Source: Candidatus Hodarchaeota archaeon
GTDB lineage: Archaea; Asgardarchaeota; Lokiarchaeia; Sigyniarchaeales; SOKP01
Length of the DNA stretch: 64,000 nucleotides
NCBI GenBank assembly: GCA_048886685.1
Contig: JBHLKM010000007.1
Span: 96,001 to 160,000 of the forward strand
Direction: 5' to 3'
A program made the translations under genes and the position numbers. Below the pieces are notes generated by a model. That model saw nothing but the letters and a program-made list of their open reading frames with translations. It made no database searches and was not told the DNA's origin. Positions within the stretch are counted from its first letter, which is position 1. Each line of letters starts with the position of its first letter. This document shows positions 11,575-20,672 of this stretch, one piece after another.

Positions 11575-12069
11575 TTAATCCGTAATGGAATTTGTACTTA
11601 ACCTTTTCTCAATATCATCAATATGAGAACCTTTCCAATAGATTTTTTTACATTGCGAATTTAAACATTGGTAAAATTCATTATGTTGATTAAAAGTTTC
11701 TTGTAGAATAAGATGTTTGATATCGCTTATTTCCTCAACTTTTTTCATTTTGGAATTGCATATAGAACATCGTGCATGCTGAATATTGAATTTAAAATTC
11801 AATCCCAGATTTTTTTTTAACTGATTTAAGTAATTATATACACCTTCTCCTTTCAAATATATAGCATTATTGGCAAAACTCTTATAAAAAAGATAATCTT
11901 TTGTTATAACAAATCTATTAGTCTCCTTTGCAAATACTAATAATTGTTCGTCAGGGACAGGATCCCTCTTGAAGAAATCTATTAAATCATTTGCATATAA
12001 AGTATCATAACCGAATATCCTTAGGAATCGAGCTAGTTTACCTAACATCGAATCAACTAAAAATTTCAT
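11575..12069 (-). CDS. Mut7-C RNase domain protein (PIN-like fold with zinc ribbon)
   Basis: KFLVDSMLGKLARFLRIFGYD, ITKD, RCSICN, C..CKKIYWKGSH. Confidence 0.92.
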   Translation of the reverse strand: MKFLVDSMLGKLARFLRIFGYDTLYANDLIDFFKRDPVPDEQLLVFAKETNRFVITKDYLFYKSFANNAIYLKGEGVYNYLNQLKKNLGLNFKFNIQHARCSICNSKMKKVEEISDIKHLILQETFNQHNEFYQCLNSQCKKIYWKGSHIDDIEKRLSTNSITD

Positions 12070-12174: not shown

Positions 12175-12702
12175 ATGGAAACTAAAGACTTAATGGAAAA
12201 GGCAGCAAGGTTTCATGGACATATATGTCCCGGGTTGGCAATAGGTGTTTTAGCCGTTAAATATGTTCTAGAAAATGGTTTCAATTATTCTCCTAATGAA
12301 GAAGTTGTTGCAGTGGTTGAGAACGATAACTGTAGTGTAGACGCGCTTCAGTCGCTCCTCGGAGTCACCTATGGTAAGGGCAACTTGATTCATCAAGATT
12401 ATGGTAAACTTAATTATTACTTATATAATAGAGAAACTCAAAAAGCGTTAAAATTGTCTGTAAAAAGTAAAACTTTTGGAGACAAGAAGTTATCAAAACA
12501 CGAGCGCATTAAACATCTACTTGATTCTAAACCTGAAGAAATATTTTCAATATATGAAATAGAATTTAATCCTCCTAGTTTAGCTGAGATTGAAGAATCT
12601 ATACCTTGTGACATTTGTGGTGAACCAACTATGAATAGTAGACTTATGTTCTATGAGAATAGTAGTATGTGTATTCCATGCTATAAAGCTCAGAGAAAAT
12701 AA
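12175..12702 (+). CDS. FmdE/FwdE family protein with C-terminal zinc finger
   Basis: FHGHICPGLAIG, ENDNCSVDALQ, TYGKGNL, CDICGE...CIPC. Confidence 0.9.
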   Translation: METKDLMEKAARFHGHICPGLAIGVLAVKYVLENGFNYSPNEEVVAVVENDNCSVDALQSLLGVTYGKGNLIHQDYGKLNYYLYNRETQKALKLSVKSKTFGDKKLSKHERIKHLLDSKPEEIFSIYEIEFNPPSLAEIEESIPCDICGEPTMNSRLMFYENSSMCIPCYKAQRK

Positions 12703-12808: not shown

Positions 12809-14041
12809 ATGATTAAGAATATTGATAAAGGAAATACTTTATTAGTAAAAGGCCCTACAAGAATAACATTATTAGAGGGAAAATTAGACGTTTTTGGAAA
12901 GTTAGTTCTTCCAGAAAAGGAAATTTTAACATCAAATAGATCCGATATTGAAGATGAAAATGTTTTAATAATACCCAGTGCCCAATGTTATCCCCTCTAT
13001 GCATATGAGAATGCAAAATTAGAAATTTATACAAGTAACGAAGAAAACCTAAAATTAGTTAAAGAAAATTCAATTTCATCAGCATGGATTGATATTAAAA
13101 ATGAGATACTAGAAGAATTAAAAAAAGGAAAAGAAACACCTCTAAAAATTATGGTGATAGGTTTTAGTAGTGGTAAAACTACACTCATTAAATACTTAGC
13201 AAATAATTTTATGAAAGAAGGATTAAAGGGAGGATACCTTGATTCAGATCTTGGCCAACAAATTATTTATATCCCAACTACTATAAATTTGGGTACAATA
13301 AAAGAATATATAATTTCGAGTAAAGATATCCATTCTGAAGACACTGTATTTATTGGAGCAACATACCCTAAGGGAGATAATAAATATATAGTATCACTTT
13401 CATGTAGGAAAATGATTGATGATTATATTACAGAAAATCCAGATGTTAACTTTATTTTAATTGATACTGATGGCTGGATAAAAACTGAAGCAGGTATCCT
13501 ATATAAGAATTATTTCATAAAAACAGTAGATCCAGACATTTTAATTGCATTTCATGATGATACGATTGAAGAATTAAAGGATATTGAGAAGACTGCTTCT
13601 AGTCAAAGGAAAGATAGAAAAATTTATTTGATAAAGGAAGTAAATGAATATTTCTGTGAACGAGATAAAGATGAAAGAAGATTTCTGAGACAAAGTCAGT
13701 TTTCTAAGAAATTTGAGGAATTTAGAAAAATATCTATACCGTTAAATGATATTAAATTTATAAAAACAGATTATAATAAGGAATTAGATGAAATAGTTGA
13801 AACAGAAATAGAAATTAATGAATTAATAAACCTACCATATCATTACGTAATAATTGGTTTACTAACAGAAAATTCCGAATTAGTGGAAATTGGACTTCTT
13901 TTTACTATAAATGCTGAAAAAAATTACATATTGCTTTATTCAAACTTAACTTATAAACAGCAACTTCAAATAAAAAAAATACTGCTTGGGAGTCTTAGAT
14001 TATCTACAAAAGGTAATCATCAAGGTTACTTATATCTATAG
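12809..14041 (+). CDS. Clp1/Grc3/Nol9-family polynucleotide 5'-kinase
   Basis: TLLVKGP N-terminus, P-loop SGKTT, DSDLGQ, LIDTDGW, RxxxERRxxR clasp motif. Confidence 0.85.
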   Translation: MIKNIDKGNTLLVKGPTRITLLEGKLDVFGKLVLPEKEILTSNRSDIEDENVLIIPSAQCYPLYAYENAKLEIYTSNEENLKLVKENSISSAWIDIKNEILEELKKGKETPLKIMVIGFSSGKTTLIKYLANNFMKEGLKGGYLDSDLGQQIIYIPTTINLGTIKEYIISSKDIHSEDTVFIGATYPKGDNKYIVSLSCRKMIDDYITENPDVNFILIDTDGWIKTEAGILYKNYFIKTVDPDILIAFHDDTIEELKDIEKTASSQRKDRKIYLIKEVNEYFCERDKDERRFLRQSQFSKKFEEFRKISIPLNDIKFIKTDYNKELDEIVETEIEINELINLPYHYVIIGLLTENSELVEIGLLFTINAEKNYILLYSNLTYKQQLQIKKILLGSLRLSTKGNHQGYLYL

Positions 14042-14178: not shown

Positions 14179-15627
14179 ATGATTTACATGGAAGAGGATT
14201 TACTTACTAAGTTTCTTAAATTAATGTCATCCTCGATAACTGATTCCGATCTTGAATTAATCAAACTTGGAAACTCATTAGGCTTAGATTTGGTATCTTT
14301 CGCAGAATTAAGAGCTTCACAAGAGGACGCTTTTGTAGATCTTATTAGAGATAAAGCATTAGAGAAAATGAAAAAAAATGAAGATAATATCCTAATTAAT
14401 AACGACTTCTTTTACTCTGGGAGTATCGATTTCATGGTATCTGATGAACCTGAAGGAAAAAAATTTTTTCTGTTGGAAACAAATGGTGGGTCACATAGAG
14501 GACTGTCTATAATTACCAAAAAACAGCAAGCTTTATTATATAATGGATACCTTGAAGCCATCTATCAAGCGATTAAGAAAAAAGAAAGGAGAGACGATAA
14601 AGTTTTTGTATTAATTGGAGTACCGATTAATGATGCTTTAATCCATGAAAAAGTAATTATGATAGAGTATTTCAGAAAAACTCTTAAATCAGAAGGATAT
14701 AGTGTAAAAATTTTCAATAGAGAAAGTTTTAATATCGATTTTAAAGCGAAGATTATTTTTCTAATAGCAGATTATAGACAACTTTCTACTTCTCTGTCAT
14801 TTACTGATAATTTTATTAAATACAAAGGTGAAGAAATAAGTGTTTTAATCGGTGATGGTATTACAAGACGTATTAACGTTAAAAAATTTCAAGAGCAAAT
14901 AAAAAAAGATTTTCGAAAGATTAAAACAATAATTGTGAATCCAATTTTCAAAGTCACTGATGATAAATCTTTAACATACCTGGCGAGTTTTCTTAGTAAA
15001 GATATTTTAAAAAAGTATAATCTTAGATATTTACTGTTTACTAAAGCTTATAATGAGAAAGATTTAATAGGTAAATTAAGTTTTCTTTTAAAGAATTACG
15101 ATAAATCATTTATTATTAAACCTAGTGGGGGTTCGGGAGGGGCTGGAGTTATTCCTATTTCTAAAGATGAACAATCAACTAATTTAAAAGAAATTATTGA
15201 AACGAGTAAAAAGGAATTTTTTGCTAAATTTATGAAAAGTCGTAATCCGTACCCATACACTATACAAGAAAAAGCAAATTTTTCTTTAATTGATTGGGGT
15301 GATAAAAAACATACATTTGACTTAAGGTTTTATTTAGCTCAAAGTAGAGGGAAGGTAATACCAATTGGAGGATTAGGAAGAATTGCACGCGGGAGTTTTA
15401 CAGATGGATTGAATAAAGAAGAGTTTGTTGTTAACTTATCAGGTTATGATGGTCAAATAGAAGTGAAAAGGGGTATTGGTTTTTCTAATGAAACGAGCAA
15501 ACTGTTAAACTTAACTGAGGAAGACTTTATAAATATGTTTTGTATAGGATGTGTACTATTTGCCACGATTGTTAAAAATTATAATAAGATCGTACATTTT
15601 TCTAATTGGGATAAAATCATTGGTTAA
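14179..15627 (+). CDS. Circularly permuted ATP-grasp amide/peptide ligase
   Basis: Metal-binding IDF...LLETN motif near the N-terminus, followed later by IIKPSGGSGGAGV, YTIQE, FDLRFY, GGLGRIA, VVNLSG. Confidence 0.8.
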   Translation: MIYMEEDLLTKFLKLMSSSITDSDLELIKLGNSLGLDLVSFAELRASQEDAFVDLIRDKALEKMKKNEDNILINNDFFYSGSIDFMVSDEPEGKKFFLLETNGGSHRGLSIITKKQQALLYNGYLEAIYQAIKKKERRDDKVFVLIGVPINDALIHEKVIMIEYFRKTLKSEGYSVKIFNRESFNIDFKAKIIFLIADYRQLSTSLSFTDNFIKYKGEEISVLIGDGITRRINVKKFQEQIKKDFRKIKTIIVNPIFKVTDDKSLTYLASFLSKDILKKYNLRYLLFTKAYNEKDLIGKLSFLLKNYDKSFIIKPSGGSGGAGVIPISKDEQSTNLKEIIETSKKEFFAKFMKSRNPYPYTIQEKANFSLIDWGDKKHTFDLRFYLAQSRGKVIPIGGLGRIARGSFTDGLNKEEFVVNLSGYDGQIEVKRGIGFSNETSKLLNLTEEDFINMFCIGCVLFATIVKNYNKIVHFSNWDKIIG

Positions 15628-15630
15628 ATT

Positions 15631-16797
15631 ATGATAAACGCAGAAATTTTAAAAGATTTATTGTTTTTACCTAACAGACGTAAAATATTTGATAAAATCC
15701 TAAATACTCTAAAAAATTTTTCACATTTAAGTGATATTCATTATTTCGAATTTGATATATCAGAAGGTAAAATTCCGGTTATTGTAATTGCAAAATCATT
15801 GAATCCTGAAGAAGTTAGTTACTTAAAATTGTTTGTTGGGGCTCAGCATAATGAATACAACGGGCTCTTCGGAATTATTGAGTTCTTAAAGATGATAGAA
15901 AAATCGATAATACCTCTTGATGAAATTTTGATAAATAACCAGATTATAATTTTCGCTCCTCTGATGAATCCTTATGGTTTCTTAAATCCAAAAAATAATA
16001 ATAAATCAGGATATTATCTAAAAAATGGAACAAATTTAAATCGTTATTGGAGAAGAACTTTTGCTCCAGGATATAAGAATGATGAGAATGATTTAAATAA
16101 TTATCCCATTCCAGAACATGCTAGAATTTTATATAACATCCTTGAAAAATATTGGAAAAAGAATAATATCCCAATATACATTCTAGATTTTCATGAAACA
16201 TCATTACTTGAAAGATTTTTGACAGATTTAACTAATAATTTACAAAAGAAATCAATTACTTACAAATTTTCTCATTGGCTTAAGGAGGGAATAATCTTTA
16301 ACATTGTTAAACTATATAATATCCCTTACTCTAGAAAACCCTTATTTTATAGATGTAATTCTAATGCAGATCATACTCATATAAACTTTACAATTAGACA
16401 ATTAGATACAGTATACCAACACCTCCAAGAATATATATCCCAAAATCATGGAAAATTAGCATTCTATTTTTGTTATAGTAATAGAAGTAAGGAATTTTGT
16501 GAAAAGTTGGCATCAAATGTATATAATAGATTAACCGATATACTATGGGAAACTTATTTTCCTGCATTTAATCATCATTTCCATGACCATGGTTGTTTTG
16601 TAAACATGAATGATGCCACAAAAAGAAAAGGTGTATATTCTATGGAATTAGAGTCTCAAAAACAATTTTTTGATATTTTTGATGAAGTTGATAAGTCTAA
16701 AACAGATAGTAATTATTTTGAAAATAAAATTAAAATAATAAAAATGAGTACTCAATTAGTTGTAGAGTCAATAAGAGAATTATTAACTCTTTTCTAG
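15631..16797 (+). CDS. M14-like zinc carboxypeptidase/deacylase (AstE/AspA-type fold)
   Basis: GAQHNE, PLMNPYGF, NLNR, ILDFHE, terminal MELE; starts 3 nt after the ATP-grasp stop. Confidence 0.75.
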   Translation: MINAEILKDLLFLPNRRKIFDKILNTLKNFSHLSDIHYFEFDISEGKIPVIVIAKSLNPEEVSYLKLFVGAQHNEYNGLFGIIEFLKMIEKSIIPLDEILINNQIIIFAPLMNPYGFLNPKNNNKSGYYLKNGTNLNRYWRRTFAPGYKNDENDLNNYPIPEHARILYNILEKYWKKNNIPIYILDFHETSLLERFLTDLTNNLQKKSITYKFSHWLKEGIIFNIVKLYNIPYSRKPLFYRCNSNADHTHINFTIRQLDTVYQHLQEYISQNHGKLAFYFCYSNRSKEFCEKLASNVYNRLTDILWETYFPAFNHHFHDHGCFVNMNDATKRKGVYSMELESQKQFFDIFDEVDKSKTDSNYFENKIKIIKMSTQLVVESIRELLTLF

Positions 16798-18587: not shown

Positions 18588-20672
18588 TTATTTAAAATTA
18601 TTTTTCATTAGGTTGTTCAACTGATTTTTTAATCCTTTTATATTTTGTAATCGGGTATAGAGTCTTTTTATTTTAGATAAAACAGAATCTAATTCATCTA
18701 ATGAAAAGATTTTATAATTTTTAATATAGAATCGAGGAATTAAAAATTTGTATGGAACTTTATACGGTTCTATTTTTAAATCTAATAAATCTCTTAATAA
18801 ATTGTAATCTAAATTAGACTTTAAATAAAACTCATCTAAAAATAATAAATTCACTAAAGAATTGCTCAACCTTTTGAAAAATGTAAGATAACGTACGATC
18901 TCATCATAGCTTTTGTGATTAAATTTCTCGATAATTGGATTTCCTACAATTTTAGGCGCTGTTGAATCAAAATCATATTTTAACTGTGAAAGAAGTTGCA
19001 AAATTTTACCCAGTTGTGATAGAAACGAAGGAAATTTGTTTGGTAATGGTAATCGTTTAATGAAACTCCCATTAAATCGTAAATAACCTCCAGCCATGTG
19101 AAGAGAACTAAATAATGTTTTAAACACTGTATCTAATAAGTTTGAGTTTAATATTGTTAAGAGGCAATAAAGGATCTCAGTATTTACCGAAGGGATTCTT
19201 ATGAAATATAACCCGGTTATATTAGTAAATATCCCGGAATCATAAGAACAAGTTAAATCTTTAGCTATTTCTCTGAAAATTATTTTTTCGTTGTTGAGTT
19301 CTTGCCAAATCGGTTTAAAAGTATGATCGTAATTAAAATATGAAATTCCAATATCTCGTTTGGCTATTTTTATCCTTCTATCAAATTTAATATGATACTT
19401 ACCGATATTTCCTGTCCCGATCAACAAGAGATCCTTATCAGATTGGGATTTTTCGCTGATATTATCAAAAAATTTACTATATTTCAAAAATCCATAGGGA
19501 CGATATATGATTTTTAAATCCCTAAACGTATCCTTAACTAATTTAAATTTATTATACAAATATTCAATTAAATCAATATTACCTGAAATAGGAATAACAT
19601 AAGATGGAAGAATTTTAATTAATTTCTGAGGTAATTTAATTAATTTTGTCCTATTAAAGGTCAGAAGATCGTCGAGATCATCAAATTTTCTTATATTAAT
19701 CTCAAACATATCATCGGGATTACTTTTTTTAAAATATATAATTATTGGATATGTTGCTGCTTTTTGAAAAATAGATAAAGAAGAACTATTATCAATTTCT
19801 CTTAGTTCAATGTTTTCAATTAGGATTTCTCGAATTTTAATTCCATAATCAGCCGATAAAAATTTGTTAGGTAAAATTAAGGAAAGATAACCATTCTCTT
19901 TCAATAATTCAATAGATTTTTCAATAAATACAACGGAGAGATCGAATAATTTATACGCTGACATAAACCTTTCATATAGTTTGCTTTTGTACTCAGTATC
20001 TAGTTTCTTATTTTCAACATAGGGAGGATTTCCTATTATTATATCAAACATTCCAGATTCAAGCTCCAAAAGAAAGTCTAAGTTGAATATATTGAGTTTA
20101 ACATCAATCCTATTGATAAACTTGTCAATTTTTTCTAAGCTTAATCTTTTTATGTTGAAATCAGGAAGACTATGTTTGGTTTCATTACCAGAAATAAGCC
20201 ATGAAATTAAACGTAATTTTGTGATGATATATGCAAATTTTTCAATTTCAATCCCATAAAGGTTTTCTTGTAAAATTTTTCGTTTTATTTCATAATCGTC
20301 TAATCCAGAATCTAGAATTTTATAAAATTGATAAAGATTTTTAGCAGAAGAAATTATAAACCTTCCAGATCCACAAGCAGGATCCAAAATTTTAATATTT
20401 TCGAGCTTTTTGAGAAATTTTTTTTTAAGATAATGGTTTTCAGATAAATCCTGTAACATAAATTCAAAAGAGGAATTATTTTCAGAGGTTTTTGCATTTT
20501 TAAAGAAGTCTTCAAAATATAATTTGAATACATTTGAAAAAATATAATCAACAATAAACTCTGGAGTATATATTACTCCTAAACTCCTATCATTAATTTT
20601 ACTATTAGCTTTTTTGTTCTCAAAGTCTTTAATAATATTATTCAGATACGTCAAAAAATCGTGAGTCGACAA
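18588..20672 (-). CDS. N6-adenine DNA methyltransferase, Eco57I/TaqI-like (gamma class)
   Basis: GVIYTP, motif I ILDPACGSG.F, motif IV IIGNPPY, TaqI-like target-recognition region. Confidence 0.9.
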   Translation of the reverse strand: MSTHDFLTYLNNIIKDFENKKANSKINDRSLGVIYTPEFIVDYIFSNVFKLYFEDFFKNAKTSENNSSFEFMLQDLSENHYLKKKFLKKLENIKILDPACGSGRFIISSAKNLYQFYKILDSGLDDYEIKRKILQENLYGIEIEKFAYIITKLRLISWLISGNETKHSLPDFNIKRLSLEKIDKFINRIDVKLNIFNLDFLLELESGMFDIIIGNPPYVENKKLDTEYKSKLYERFMSAYKLFDLSVVFIEKSIELLKENGYLSLILPNKFLSADYGIKIREILIENIELREIDNSSSLSIFQKAATYPIIIYFKKSNPDDMFEINIRKFDDLDDLLTFNRTKLIKLPQKLIKILPSYVIPISGNIDLIEYLYNKFKLVKDTFRDLKIIYRPYGFLKYSKFFDNISEKSQSDKDLLLIGTGNIGKYHIKFDRRIKIAKRDIGISYFNYDHTFKPIWQELNNEKIIFREIAKDLTCSYDSGIFTNITGLYFIRIPSVNTEILYCLLTILNSNLLDTVFKTLFSSLHMAGGYLRFNGSFIKRLPLPNKFPSFLSQLGKILQLLSQLKYDFDSTAPKIVGNPIIEKFNHKSYDEIVRYLTFFKRLSNSLVNLLFLDEFYLKSNLDYNLLRDLLDLKIEPYKVPYKFLIPRFYIKNYKIFSLDELDSVLSKIKRLYTRLQNIKGLKNQLNNLMKNNFK

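Follow-up and report, generated by a model that had tools for sequence, protein, structure and literature searches.

A conserved gene pair in Lokiarchaeia encoding a predicted circularly permuted ATP-grasp ligase and a predicted cytosolic M14-fold zinc hydrolase

We analysed two adjacent genes in a window of 64,000 nucleotides (contig JBHLKM010000007.1, positions 96,001 to 160,000 of the forward strand) from the Candidatus Hodarchaeota archaeon assembly GCA_048886685.1, an Asgard genome of 4.4 Mb that is 100% complete by markers and has a low G+C content (about 27% around the gene pair). Gene 1 encodes a predicted ATP-grasp ligase and gene 2 a predicted zinc hydrolase. As an earlier sequence-only reading of the locus had noticed, both open reading frames are co-oriented and separated by a gap of 3 nt (junction TAA-att-ATG). 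The start of gene 1 is probably at 14188 or 14224, since the homologues have their first residue at M4 or at the invariant M16. The homologues of both proteins are labelled Promethearchaeota or Lokiarchaeota in their sources. The two genes and their main elements are as follows.

14179 to 15627, forward strand: gene 1, circularly permuted ATP-grasp amide ligase, as predicted from an AlphaFold2 model and fold matches; longest open reading frame of 482 amino acids, 356 homologues
14416 to 14490, forward strand: candidate metal-binding beta-hairpin SGSIDFMVSDEPEGKKFFLLETNGG, moved to the N-terminal part, residues 80-104 (translation; model strands 80-90 and 93-102)
14596 to 14928, forward strand: Rossmann-like pre-ATP-grasp domain, residues ~140-250 (model secondary structure; unpermuted ATP-grasps start aligning here)
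15112 to 15147, forward strand: candidate ATP-binding strand and Gly-rich loop IIKPSGGSGGAG, residues 312-323, K314 nearly invariant (motif; alignment of 39 ligases)
15316 to 15441, forward strand: FDLRFY, GGLGRIA and VVNLS blocks with R383, R401/R404 and N419 (motifs; alignments)
15631 to 16797, forward strand: gene 2, predicted cytosolic M14-fold zinc hydrolase, 388 amino acids (AlphaFold2 model; carboxypeptidase fold matches; 235 homologues)
15844 to 15855, forward strand: QHNE, residues 72-75, candidate first metal motif with H73-x-E75 spacing (invariant)
Residues 113-116 of gene 2, forward strand: NPYG (translation)
16033 to 16044, forward strand: NLNR, residues 135-138, candidate anchor for a terminal carboxylate (invariant; motif position)
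16186 to 16197, forward strand: DFHE, residues 186-189, with H188 as candidate third metal ligand (invariant)
16198 to 16620, forward strand: enlarged region between H188 and the candidate catalytic Glu, with His/Cys-rich pieces (alignment, model, translation)
16366 to 16383, forward strand: ADHTHI, residues 246-251, in the hydrolase insertion (invariant in the window's family)
16570 to 16596, forward strand: NHHFHDHGC, residues 314-322, in the hydrolase insertion (invariant in the window's family)
16651 to 16653, forward strand: E341, candidate general base, in MELES, residues 338-342 (invariant; model strand 335-342)

The motifs quoted in the sequence-only reading were all recovered where it had placed them: in gene 1 SGSIDFMVSDEPEGKKFFLLETNGG at residues 80-104 and, behind IIKPSGGSGGAG, IQE followed by FDLRFY, GGLGRIA and VVNLS; in gene 2 NPYG, NLNR and DFHE. 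In an alignment of 39 ligases reaching down to 19% identity the hairpin 80-104 is conserved, and D84, E100, N102, K314 and R383 are nearly invariant. Judged by motif and strand position, K314 would be the ATP-binding Lys and D84, E100 and N102 the Mg-binding acidic and Asn residues. HMMER, run exhaustively over 1.84 billion cluster representatives, returned only 67 clusters of this ligase family, about 25 of them full-length with 19-42% identity and one common architecture; fused or longer forms did not turn up, which is weak evidence. No Pfam or NCBIfam ATP-grasp model scored over its curated cut-off. The best match below threshold was YheC/D (21.3 bits against a cut-off of 26.8), which covers residues 284-403 only, and over the same residues further sub-threshold matches were obtained to the prokaryotic glutathione synthetase and the sugar-transfer-associated type. 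Searches against the PDB sequences, with the single sequence as well as with a profile, gave nothing meaningful.

The AlphaFold2 model of the ligase has a predicted local distance difference test score (pLDDT) of 90.7 and a predicted template modelling score (pTM) of 0.91. Foldseek matched it to ATP-grasp enzymes with a probability of 1.00, the top matches being eukaryotic-type glutathione synthetases (E down to 1e-14), and in structural comparison many solved ATP-grasp enzymes reach Z 11-15. The permuted ATP-grasps align collinearly with the model, from residue ~21-60 to ~440-472. The best match is 3k1t (Z 15.4, root-mean-square deviation (rmsd) 4.4 Å over 335 residues, model 60-472 against chain 24-423), followed by YjfC (Z 14.5), the eukaryotic glutathione and homoglutathione synthetases (Z 13-14, collinear from residue ~21 to 441), GspS (Z 12.5-12.8) and 3n6x (Z 12.1). 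The unpermuted enzymes ArgX/LysX, Ddl, TTL/TTLL6 and CPS match only residues ~140-466 (139-470 for TTL and TTLL6), and their own C-terminal ~50 residues stay unmatched.

In canonical ATP-grasps the E-x-N metal ligands lie in the C-terminal part. On the model, the counterpart of this part is the N-terminal hairpin 80-102. Because it is the C-terminal part that the unpermuted enzymes lose in the alignment, the permutation is real and of the glutathione synthetase/GspS kind, in agreement with the circular permutation that had been proposed from the motif order. The hairpin segment alone, taken from five homologues, gave no ATP-grasp match in Pfam, so that the permutation rests on structure and not on profile matches.

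For the hydrolase Pfam and NCBIfam gave no match, and the PDB sequences none with either the single sequence or a profile; a precomputed PF00246 match exists for one of 120 homologues, and a protein language-model atlas places the hydrolase beside clusters carrying Peptidase_M14. Its AlphaFold2 model (pLDDT 89.2) matches carboxypeptidases A, A4, B, D and M with Z 21-22 (rmsd 3.2 Å, ~256 aligned residues). The bacterial CCP-like protein 3l2n reaches Z 20.5 over the catalytic domain only and is aligned only from its residue 79, and Foldseek also matches the small, deacylase-like Shewanella M14 proteins 3b2y, 2qvp and 3ieh. From these model comparisons the hydrolase is assigned the M14 carboxypeptidase fold. 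Helices at residues 4-32 of the model are followed by the catalytic sheet, and the C-terminal part is helical. There is no pro-domain and no signal peptide, the latter read from the N-terminal sequence and not by a predictor.

Among 38 hydrolase homologues Q72-H73-N74-E75, N113-P114, N124-K125, N135-L-N137-R138, D186-F-H188-E189 and E339/E341 are invariant. A 30%-identical homologue from the sister family, which weakly matches an N-acetylornithine deacetylase model, keeps all of these residues except E339. As this homologue lacks E339, E341 is the likely general base and would be the counterpart of E270 of carboxypeptidase A. For the terminal Glu that had been named as a motif of gene 2 a correction applies: the candidate catalytic Glu of MELES that all relatives keep is E341, not E339. 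Motif order and strand position suggest that N137/R138 of NLNR correspond to N144/R145 of carboxypeptidase A.

The first metal motif has the spacing H-x-E and not H-x-x-E, both in the 38 sequences and in the 30%-identical homologue, which bears out the atypical motif pointed out before. Because the AstE-type proteins that accompany distant ligases (see below) read GQHGxEWNG, one residue longer than AQHNEYNG in the window's hydrolase, the H-x-E spacing looks like a one-residue deletion. The large insertion that had been noted in gene 2 is present as well: H188 and E341 are ~150 residues apart. In carboxypeptidase A, H196 and E270 are ~74 residues apart. The His and Cys residues of ADHTHI and NHHFHDHGC are invariant in the window's family and missing from the sister-family homologue (locus L032), and these pieces are therefore read as a lineage-specific addition. 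They perhaps form a second metal site. The confidence of the model is low at residues 240-246.

To describe how the pair is distributed, 300 genomes of the phylum were sampled. A full-length ligase is present in 62 of the 67 genomes of the window's own family and in one of seven genomes of the sister family; in the rest of the survey only generic ATP-grasp fragments match. The hydrolase was detected in 43 of the 67 and again in one of the seven. A hydrolase match exists in 45 genomes, the window's genome counted. In 44 of them the hydrolase gene immediately follows the ligase gene in the same orientation, and the remaining genome is one in which no ligase was detected. In the sister-family genome G284 (locus L032) the pair is also adjacent, in a different neighbourhood. 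The functional coupling of the two genes that had been proposed is thus supported by their co-occurrence in other genomes, and, across the wider ligase family, by an M14-like AstE/AspA neighbour.

The hydrolase is missing from about one third of the window-family genomes that keep the ligase. In one genus, 22 of 27 genomes carry the ligase and seven the hydrolase. Three genomes of the window's own genus retain stubs of the hydrolase beside an intact ligase.

G131:C22:9385-9564: hydrolase stub, residues 328-387, containing stop codons
G194:C6:58711-58932: hydrolase stub, residues 1-76, containing stop codons
G176:C34:6783-6884: hydrolase stub, residues 1-34

Ten loci with a missing hydrolase were fetched for comparison of the gene order. 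They have in common the order FmdE-like, Clp1-like, ligase, [hydrolase], S33 hydrolase, 109-residue open reading frame and methylase. In many genomes the hydrolase is cleanly deleted from the otherwise syntenic locus, beside ligases that are 57-75% identical. The hydrolase gene has been excised there, and the ligase is independent of it.

Around the pair, the window contains the following genes of the block that is syntenic in its family.

11575 to 12069, reverse strand: Mut7-C/PIN-like RNase with a zinc ribbon, kept in the window-family syntenic block
12175 to 12702, forward strand: FmdE-like protein with a DksA/TraR-type zinc finger, kept in the same block
12809 to 14041, forward strand: Clp1-like P-loop protein (PF16575 at 1e-26), 137 nt upstream of the ligase
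18588 to 20672, reverse strand: Eco57I/MmeI-type DNA methylase of 694 amino acids that carries a TaqI-like specificity domain and keeps its position throughout the window's family

The Clp1-like gene lies upstream of the ligase in every window-family genome examined and is missing from the sister-family locus. The Clp1-like kinase was therefore not accepted as a member of the system, since its adjacency is confined to the window-family block; its position probably reflects inherited gene order. No alpha-E or transglutaminase gene occurs within ~6 kb on either side of the pair, as had been stated before, and no candidate substrate gene travels with it, the neighbours outside the window's family being different.

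Distant relatives of the ligase show other partners. Scans with a profile of distant ligases returned 20 loci in species genomes and 27 in metagenomes, from Hadarchaeota, Chloroflexota (Anaerolineae), Bipolaricaulia, Helarchaeota and Promethearchaeota. Two neighbour families recur at these loci in varying order and orientation, an AstE/AspA-type zinc deacylase and a protein which we call FAM1. The AstE/AspA-family gene adjoins distant ligases (30-42% identity) in 13 of the 20 genome loci and on most metagenome contigs that are long enough. Its matches are to PF24827 (1e-27), to DoeB in the PDB (6twm, 5e-35) and to the DoeB model of NCBIfam (2e-24). N-acyl amino acids are the substrates of the characterised AstE, AspA and DoeB enzymes. 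An AstE-type gene is absent from the window's genome. In hhalign the window's hydrolase and the AstE-type partners reach a probability of 52% (E 1.4e-4) over 88 columns that span the zinc, NP and NR motifs, which suggests that the two are weakly related.

A tree of 72 ligases groups the Asgard sequences in a single clade, with a value of 100 in the Shimodaira-Hasegawa-like approximate likelihood ratio test (SH-aLRT). The window-type M14 partner occurs on both sides of the basal split of this clade, and the AstE-type partner in all other clades of known context. Because these other clades carry an M14-like partner too, the ligase family was linked to an M14-like zinc hydrolase before the Asgard clade arose, and the hydrolase subfamily was exchanged, or strongly diverged, at the base of that clade. 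In the Anaerolineae loci L006, L008, L014, L015, L038, L039 and L053 tandem ligase paralogues from two old clades stand beside one AstE-type gene, which suggests two successive ligations or a stepwise assembly.

FAM1 is a conserved protein of ~400 residues without a Pfam match, clustered with the ligase and the AstE-type gene in bacteria and Hadarchaeota. Its copies include the following.

G000 contig C19:49863-51107 (= L023:9863-11107): FAM1
L002:9415-10614: FAM1
L018:6732-7940: FAM1
L032:1013-2230: FAM1

Its invariant motifs (D..CGM, GxSNHF, HxSG, NHQG, PHGGGY) have the same order as in the RNA ligase RtcB, with which FAM1 aligns motif by motif (GxNHF, HxSG, NHQG, PHGGGY) and in the C-terminal strand. 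Statistically the relationship is weak (an E-value of 0.014 in hhalign and of 5e-4 with the RtcB models of NCBIfam, and a neighbouring atlas cluster with 13% RtcB), and FAM1 is possibly RtcB-like. A relationship of FAM1 to the window's hydrolase was rejected (hhalign probability 0.1%). FAM1 is present in 140 of the 300 phylum genomes, many of them without the ligase, and in the window's genome it lies on another contig. As it is so widespread, its presence indicates nothing specific, and FAM1 was rejected as a specific third component in Asgard archaea. An M20-family peptidase adjoins the ligase in the Helarchaeota locus (L018:9395-10849, reverse strand), which has no M14 partner, and a second M20-family peptidase lies 3.4 kb from FAM1 in the window's genome (L023:14556-15908, reverse strand). 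Both placements may be coincidence.

We propose that the pair is a make-and-break module for one amide bond, and that this bond belongs to a small metabolite or short peptide more likely than to a protein; we consider the whole reading about as probable as its negation. ATP-grasp enzymes form amides from an amine and a carboxylate that they activate as an acyl phosphate, and M14 and AstE/AspA enzymes hydrolyse amides in which the released portion bears a free alpha-carboxylate, held by an N-R pair. From these two activities the common chemistry of such a ligase-hydrolase family would be R-COOH + amino acid <-> R-CO-amino acid, to which the invariant NLNR of gene 2 points here. The addition and removal of a residue with a free carboxylate, put forward in the sequence-only reading, fits this conserved anchor. 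In this scheme the ligase would convert a carboxyl group to an acyl phosphate and link it to the amino group of an amino acid whose alpha-carboxylate stays free. The hydrolase would bind the terminal carboxylate of the product via N137/R138 and cleave the same bond, with H73, E75 and H188 holding the metal and E341 acting as the base. A small metabolite or a short peptide would be the most likely acceptor, and the product an N-acyl amino acid, a dipeptide-like or a pseudopeptide compound; the hydrolase would serve turnover or recycling and be dispensable. The direction and nature of the chemistry, a shared target bond of the two enzymes and a small substrate are what we infer from the folds, the conserved residues and the linkage described above.

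By analogy, a small R is favoured by the characterised close structural relatives of the ligase, all of which act on small molecules, and by the AstE/AspA/DoeB enzymes, which cleave N-acyl amino acids. The patchy distribution, the dispensable hydrolase and the tandem ligases point in the same direction, and so do the likeness of the hydrolase to the deacylase-like Shewanella proteins and the weak deacetylase match of its sister-family homologue. Several observations weigh against this reading. The central domain of the ligase finds its best sub-threshold Pfam matches in YheC/D, sugar-transfer-associated and RimK/GshB-type models, and in three relatives in TTL; some of these families modify proteins. 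ArgX/LysX, which act on a carrier protein, show the highest identity among the structural matches of the ligase (17%, Z 13). The best fold matches of the hydrolase are protein and peptide carboxypeptidases, and the H-x-E spacing is unusual for a candidate metal motif. The small substrate size would, moreover, follow from analogy with relatives at 10-14% identity.

The main alternative is a reversible tagging of proteins or peptides, in which the ligase adds one or more amino acids to a protein C-terminus or an acidic side chain and the M14 enzyme trims them. In its favour, the association of an ATP-grasp ligase and a cytosolic M14-fold enzyme is conserved, and the weak affinity of the ligase sequence to YheC/D, RimK-like and TTL models, the structural matches to ArgX/LysX (Z 12-13) and TTLL6 (Z 11.7) and the similarity of the hydrolase to true carboxypeptidases (Z 22) agree with it. 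However, the topology of the ligase is that of small-molecule ligases and not of RimK or TTL, the partner of its distant relatives is an AstE/AspA deacylase, the presumed eraser has been lost repeatedly, in about one third of the window-family genomes that keep the ligase, and it lacks the N-terminal domain of the cytosolic carboxypeptidases (CCPs). A substrate gene that travels with the pair is also missing, and so, as weak evidence, are fused or longer ligases. We regard tagging as rather doubtful. The analogy to the tubulin code drawn in the sequence-only reading is not supported beyond the enzyme superfamily, given the missing TTL match in Pfam, the different topology and the missing CCP domain. 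A protein as substrate is also disfavoured, as the ligase folds nearest to small-molecule ligases and the distant partner family cleaves N-acyl amino acids; what that reading had offered as its alternative, synthesis and turnover of a small peptide or cofactor, is the better account.

The best fold matches of the ligase include YjfC, YgiC, GspS and trypanothione synthetase (Z 11-14.5), so that it might instead join the carboxylate of a peptide or acid to a polyamine or agmatine, in the manner of GspS or YgiC/YjfC, with the zinc enzyme reversing or processing the conjugate. The gene context offers one hint in this direction: in the sister-family locus L032 the pair directly follows FAM1, a pyruvoyl arginine decarboxylase and a deoxyhypusine-synthase-like gene in a one-strand cluster (L032:1013-6703). 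A cluster of FAM1, arginine decarboxylase and a second deoxyhypusine-synthase paralogue recurs in two further sister-family genomes (G088:C5:44747-47645 and G212:C1:1986932-1989860), there without the ligase. The association with the ligase is thus found in a single genome, and in the window's genome, which has two deoxyhypusine-synthase paralogues, one of them beside arginine decarboxylase (C3:318169-320004), these genes lie on other contigs. A polyamine has no free carboxylate, whereas M14 and AstE-type enzymes need one on the part that they release, and we consider a polyamine conjugate improbable. It is just as improbable that the two enzymes act on different bonds, for instance with a carboxypeptidase that supplies amino acids or matures a precursor, and that their adjacency reflects shared regulation or inherited order. 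Because the genes surrounding the pair keep their order as one block, adjacency within the window's family has little independent weight, and the ligase persists without the hydrolase. Against this stand the spacing of 3 nt, the adjacent pair in the different neighbourhood of the sister-family genome, and the link of the ligase, on separate branches and with shuffled gene order, to a different M14-like zinc hydrolase subfamily. Taken more broadly, it is unlikely that the pair serves reversible amino-acid tagging of an Asgard macromolecule or, together with FAM1 and the arginine-decarboxylase/deoxyhypusine-synthase-like cluster, an undescribed protein or RNA modification pathway in place of a metabolite pathway.

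A small peptide-like product, as preferred here, would be a hitherto unknown metabolite typical of one Lokiarchaeia family and of scattered anaerobes. Were the product a protein tag, the closest archaeal relatives of eukaryotes would possess a novel post-translational modification; nothing that was found ties the pair to eukaryote-like cell biology. Both proteins belong to families without any curated model, and the predicted H-x-E metal motif of the hydrolase is previously unreported. The value of the pair lies in being well-defined, testable orphan enzymes.

A search of the literature gave no description of this pair. Ligases and hydrolases that together write and erase a single amide bond are known from other systems, such as the GspS synthetase/amidase, TTLL enzymes with CCPs and permuted ATP-grasps with AstE-type deacylases. 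The closest structure, 3k1t, is a structural-genomics entry from Methylobacillus flagellatus annotated as 'putative gamma-glutamylcysteine synthetase'. It has the same permuted order of elements as the ligase but only 11% identity and no match at the sequence level, and its annotation is putative.

The eukaryotic-type glutathione and homoglutathione synthetases (2hgs, 8fbz, 1m0w, 3kal, 2wyo) have the same permuted fold and are collinear with the ligase. The classic example of a circularly permuted ATP-grasp is said, after Polekhina and colleagues in 1999, to be glutathione synthetase, whose E-x-N metal ligands lie in the N-terminal half. The identity to the ligase is 10-13%, and the ligase has no Pfam match to the eukaryotic glutathione synthetase models. 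An M14 partner is not part of glutathione synthesis, unlike in the window's pair. No gamma-glutamylcysteine ligase of the GCS2 or GshA type (PF04107, PF04262) was found in the genome, with matching controls; the eukaryotic GCS model was not included in this search. Because such a gene is not found in a marker-complete genome, the function of a glutathione synthetase was rejected. Gene 1 does not correspond to a known metabolic ligase.

Another kind of permuted ATP-grasp is the COG2308 type (3n6x, Z 12.1), which has the same kind of permutation. The window's ligase has no match to PF04174 or PF14403 and no alpha-E or transglutaminase partners nearby; six of its 39 relatives match CP_ATPgrasp_2 (PF14403) weakly (best E 4e-4).

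RimK, LysX/ArgX and TTL/TTLL, combined with M14D CCPs or LysK, pair the ATP-grasp attachment of amino acids to carboxylates with their removal by a metallo-carboxypeptidase. These ligases are unpermuted and align only with residues 140-466 of the window's ligase, which is permuted (ArgX Z 13, LysX/ArgX Z 12-13, TTLL6 Z 11.7). The ligase does not match TTL (PF03133), with weak matches in three of its 39 relatives, and the N-terminal beta-sandwich domain of CCPs is missing from the hydrolase in Pfam, in the model and in the fold alignment. With the M14 carboxypeptidases of the A/B and N/E types, AstE/AspA/DoeB and the Shewanella-type proteins 3b2y, 2qvp and 3ieh the hydrolase shares NPxG, NLNR, DFH and the catalytic Glu. 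It differs from the M14 carboxypeptidases in H-x-E instead of H-x-x-E and in an insertion of ~75 residues that is His/Cys-rich in the window's own family, and from AstE/AspA in having neither a PF24827 match nor their C-terminal beta-domain.

The same logic as in the window's pair is realised in GspS, where a permuted ATP-grasp ligase is coupled to a hydrolase that reverses its reaction. The hydrolase of GspS is a fused cysteine amidase and not a separate M14 zinc enzyme, and both glutathione and glutathionylspermidine synthetases are small-molecule ligases. GspS and its E. coli relatives YjfC and YgiC are collinear with the ligase (Z 12.5-14.5) but have no sequence similarity to it, and the amine substrate of the GspS type has no carboxylate. 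YgiC and YjfC are peptide-spermidine ligases, and Cp1B makes a pseudodipeptide (PMC12568646). Although it is a member of none of the named families, the pair of gene 1 and gene 2 would work like the known ligase/hydrolase couples.

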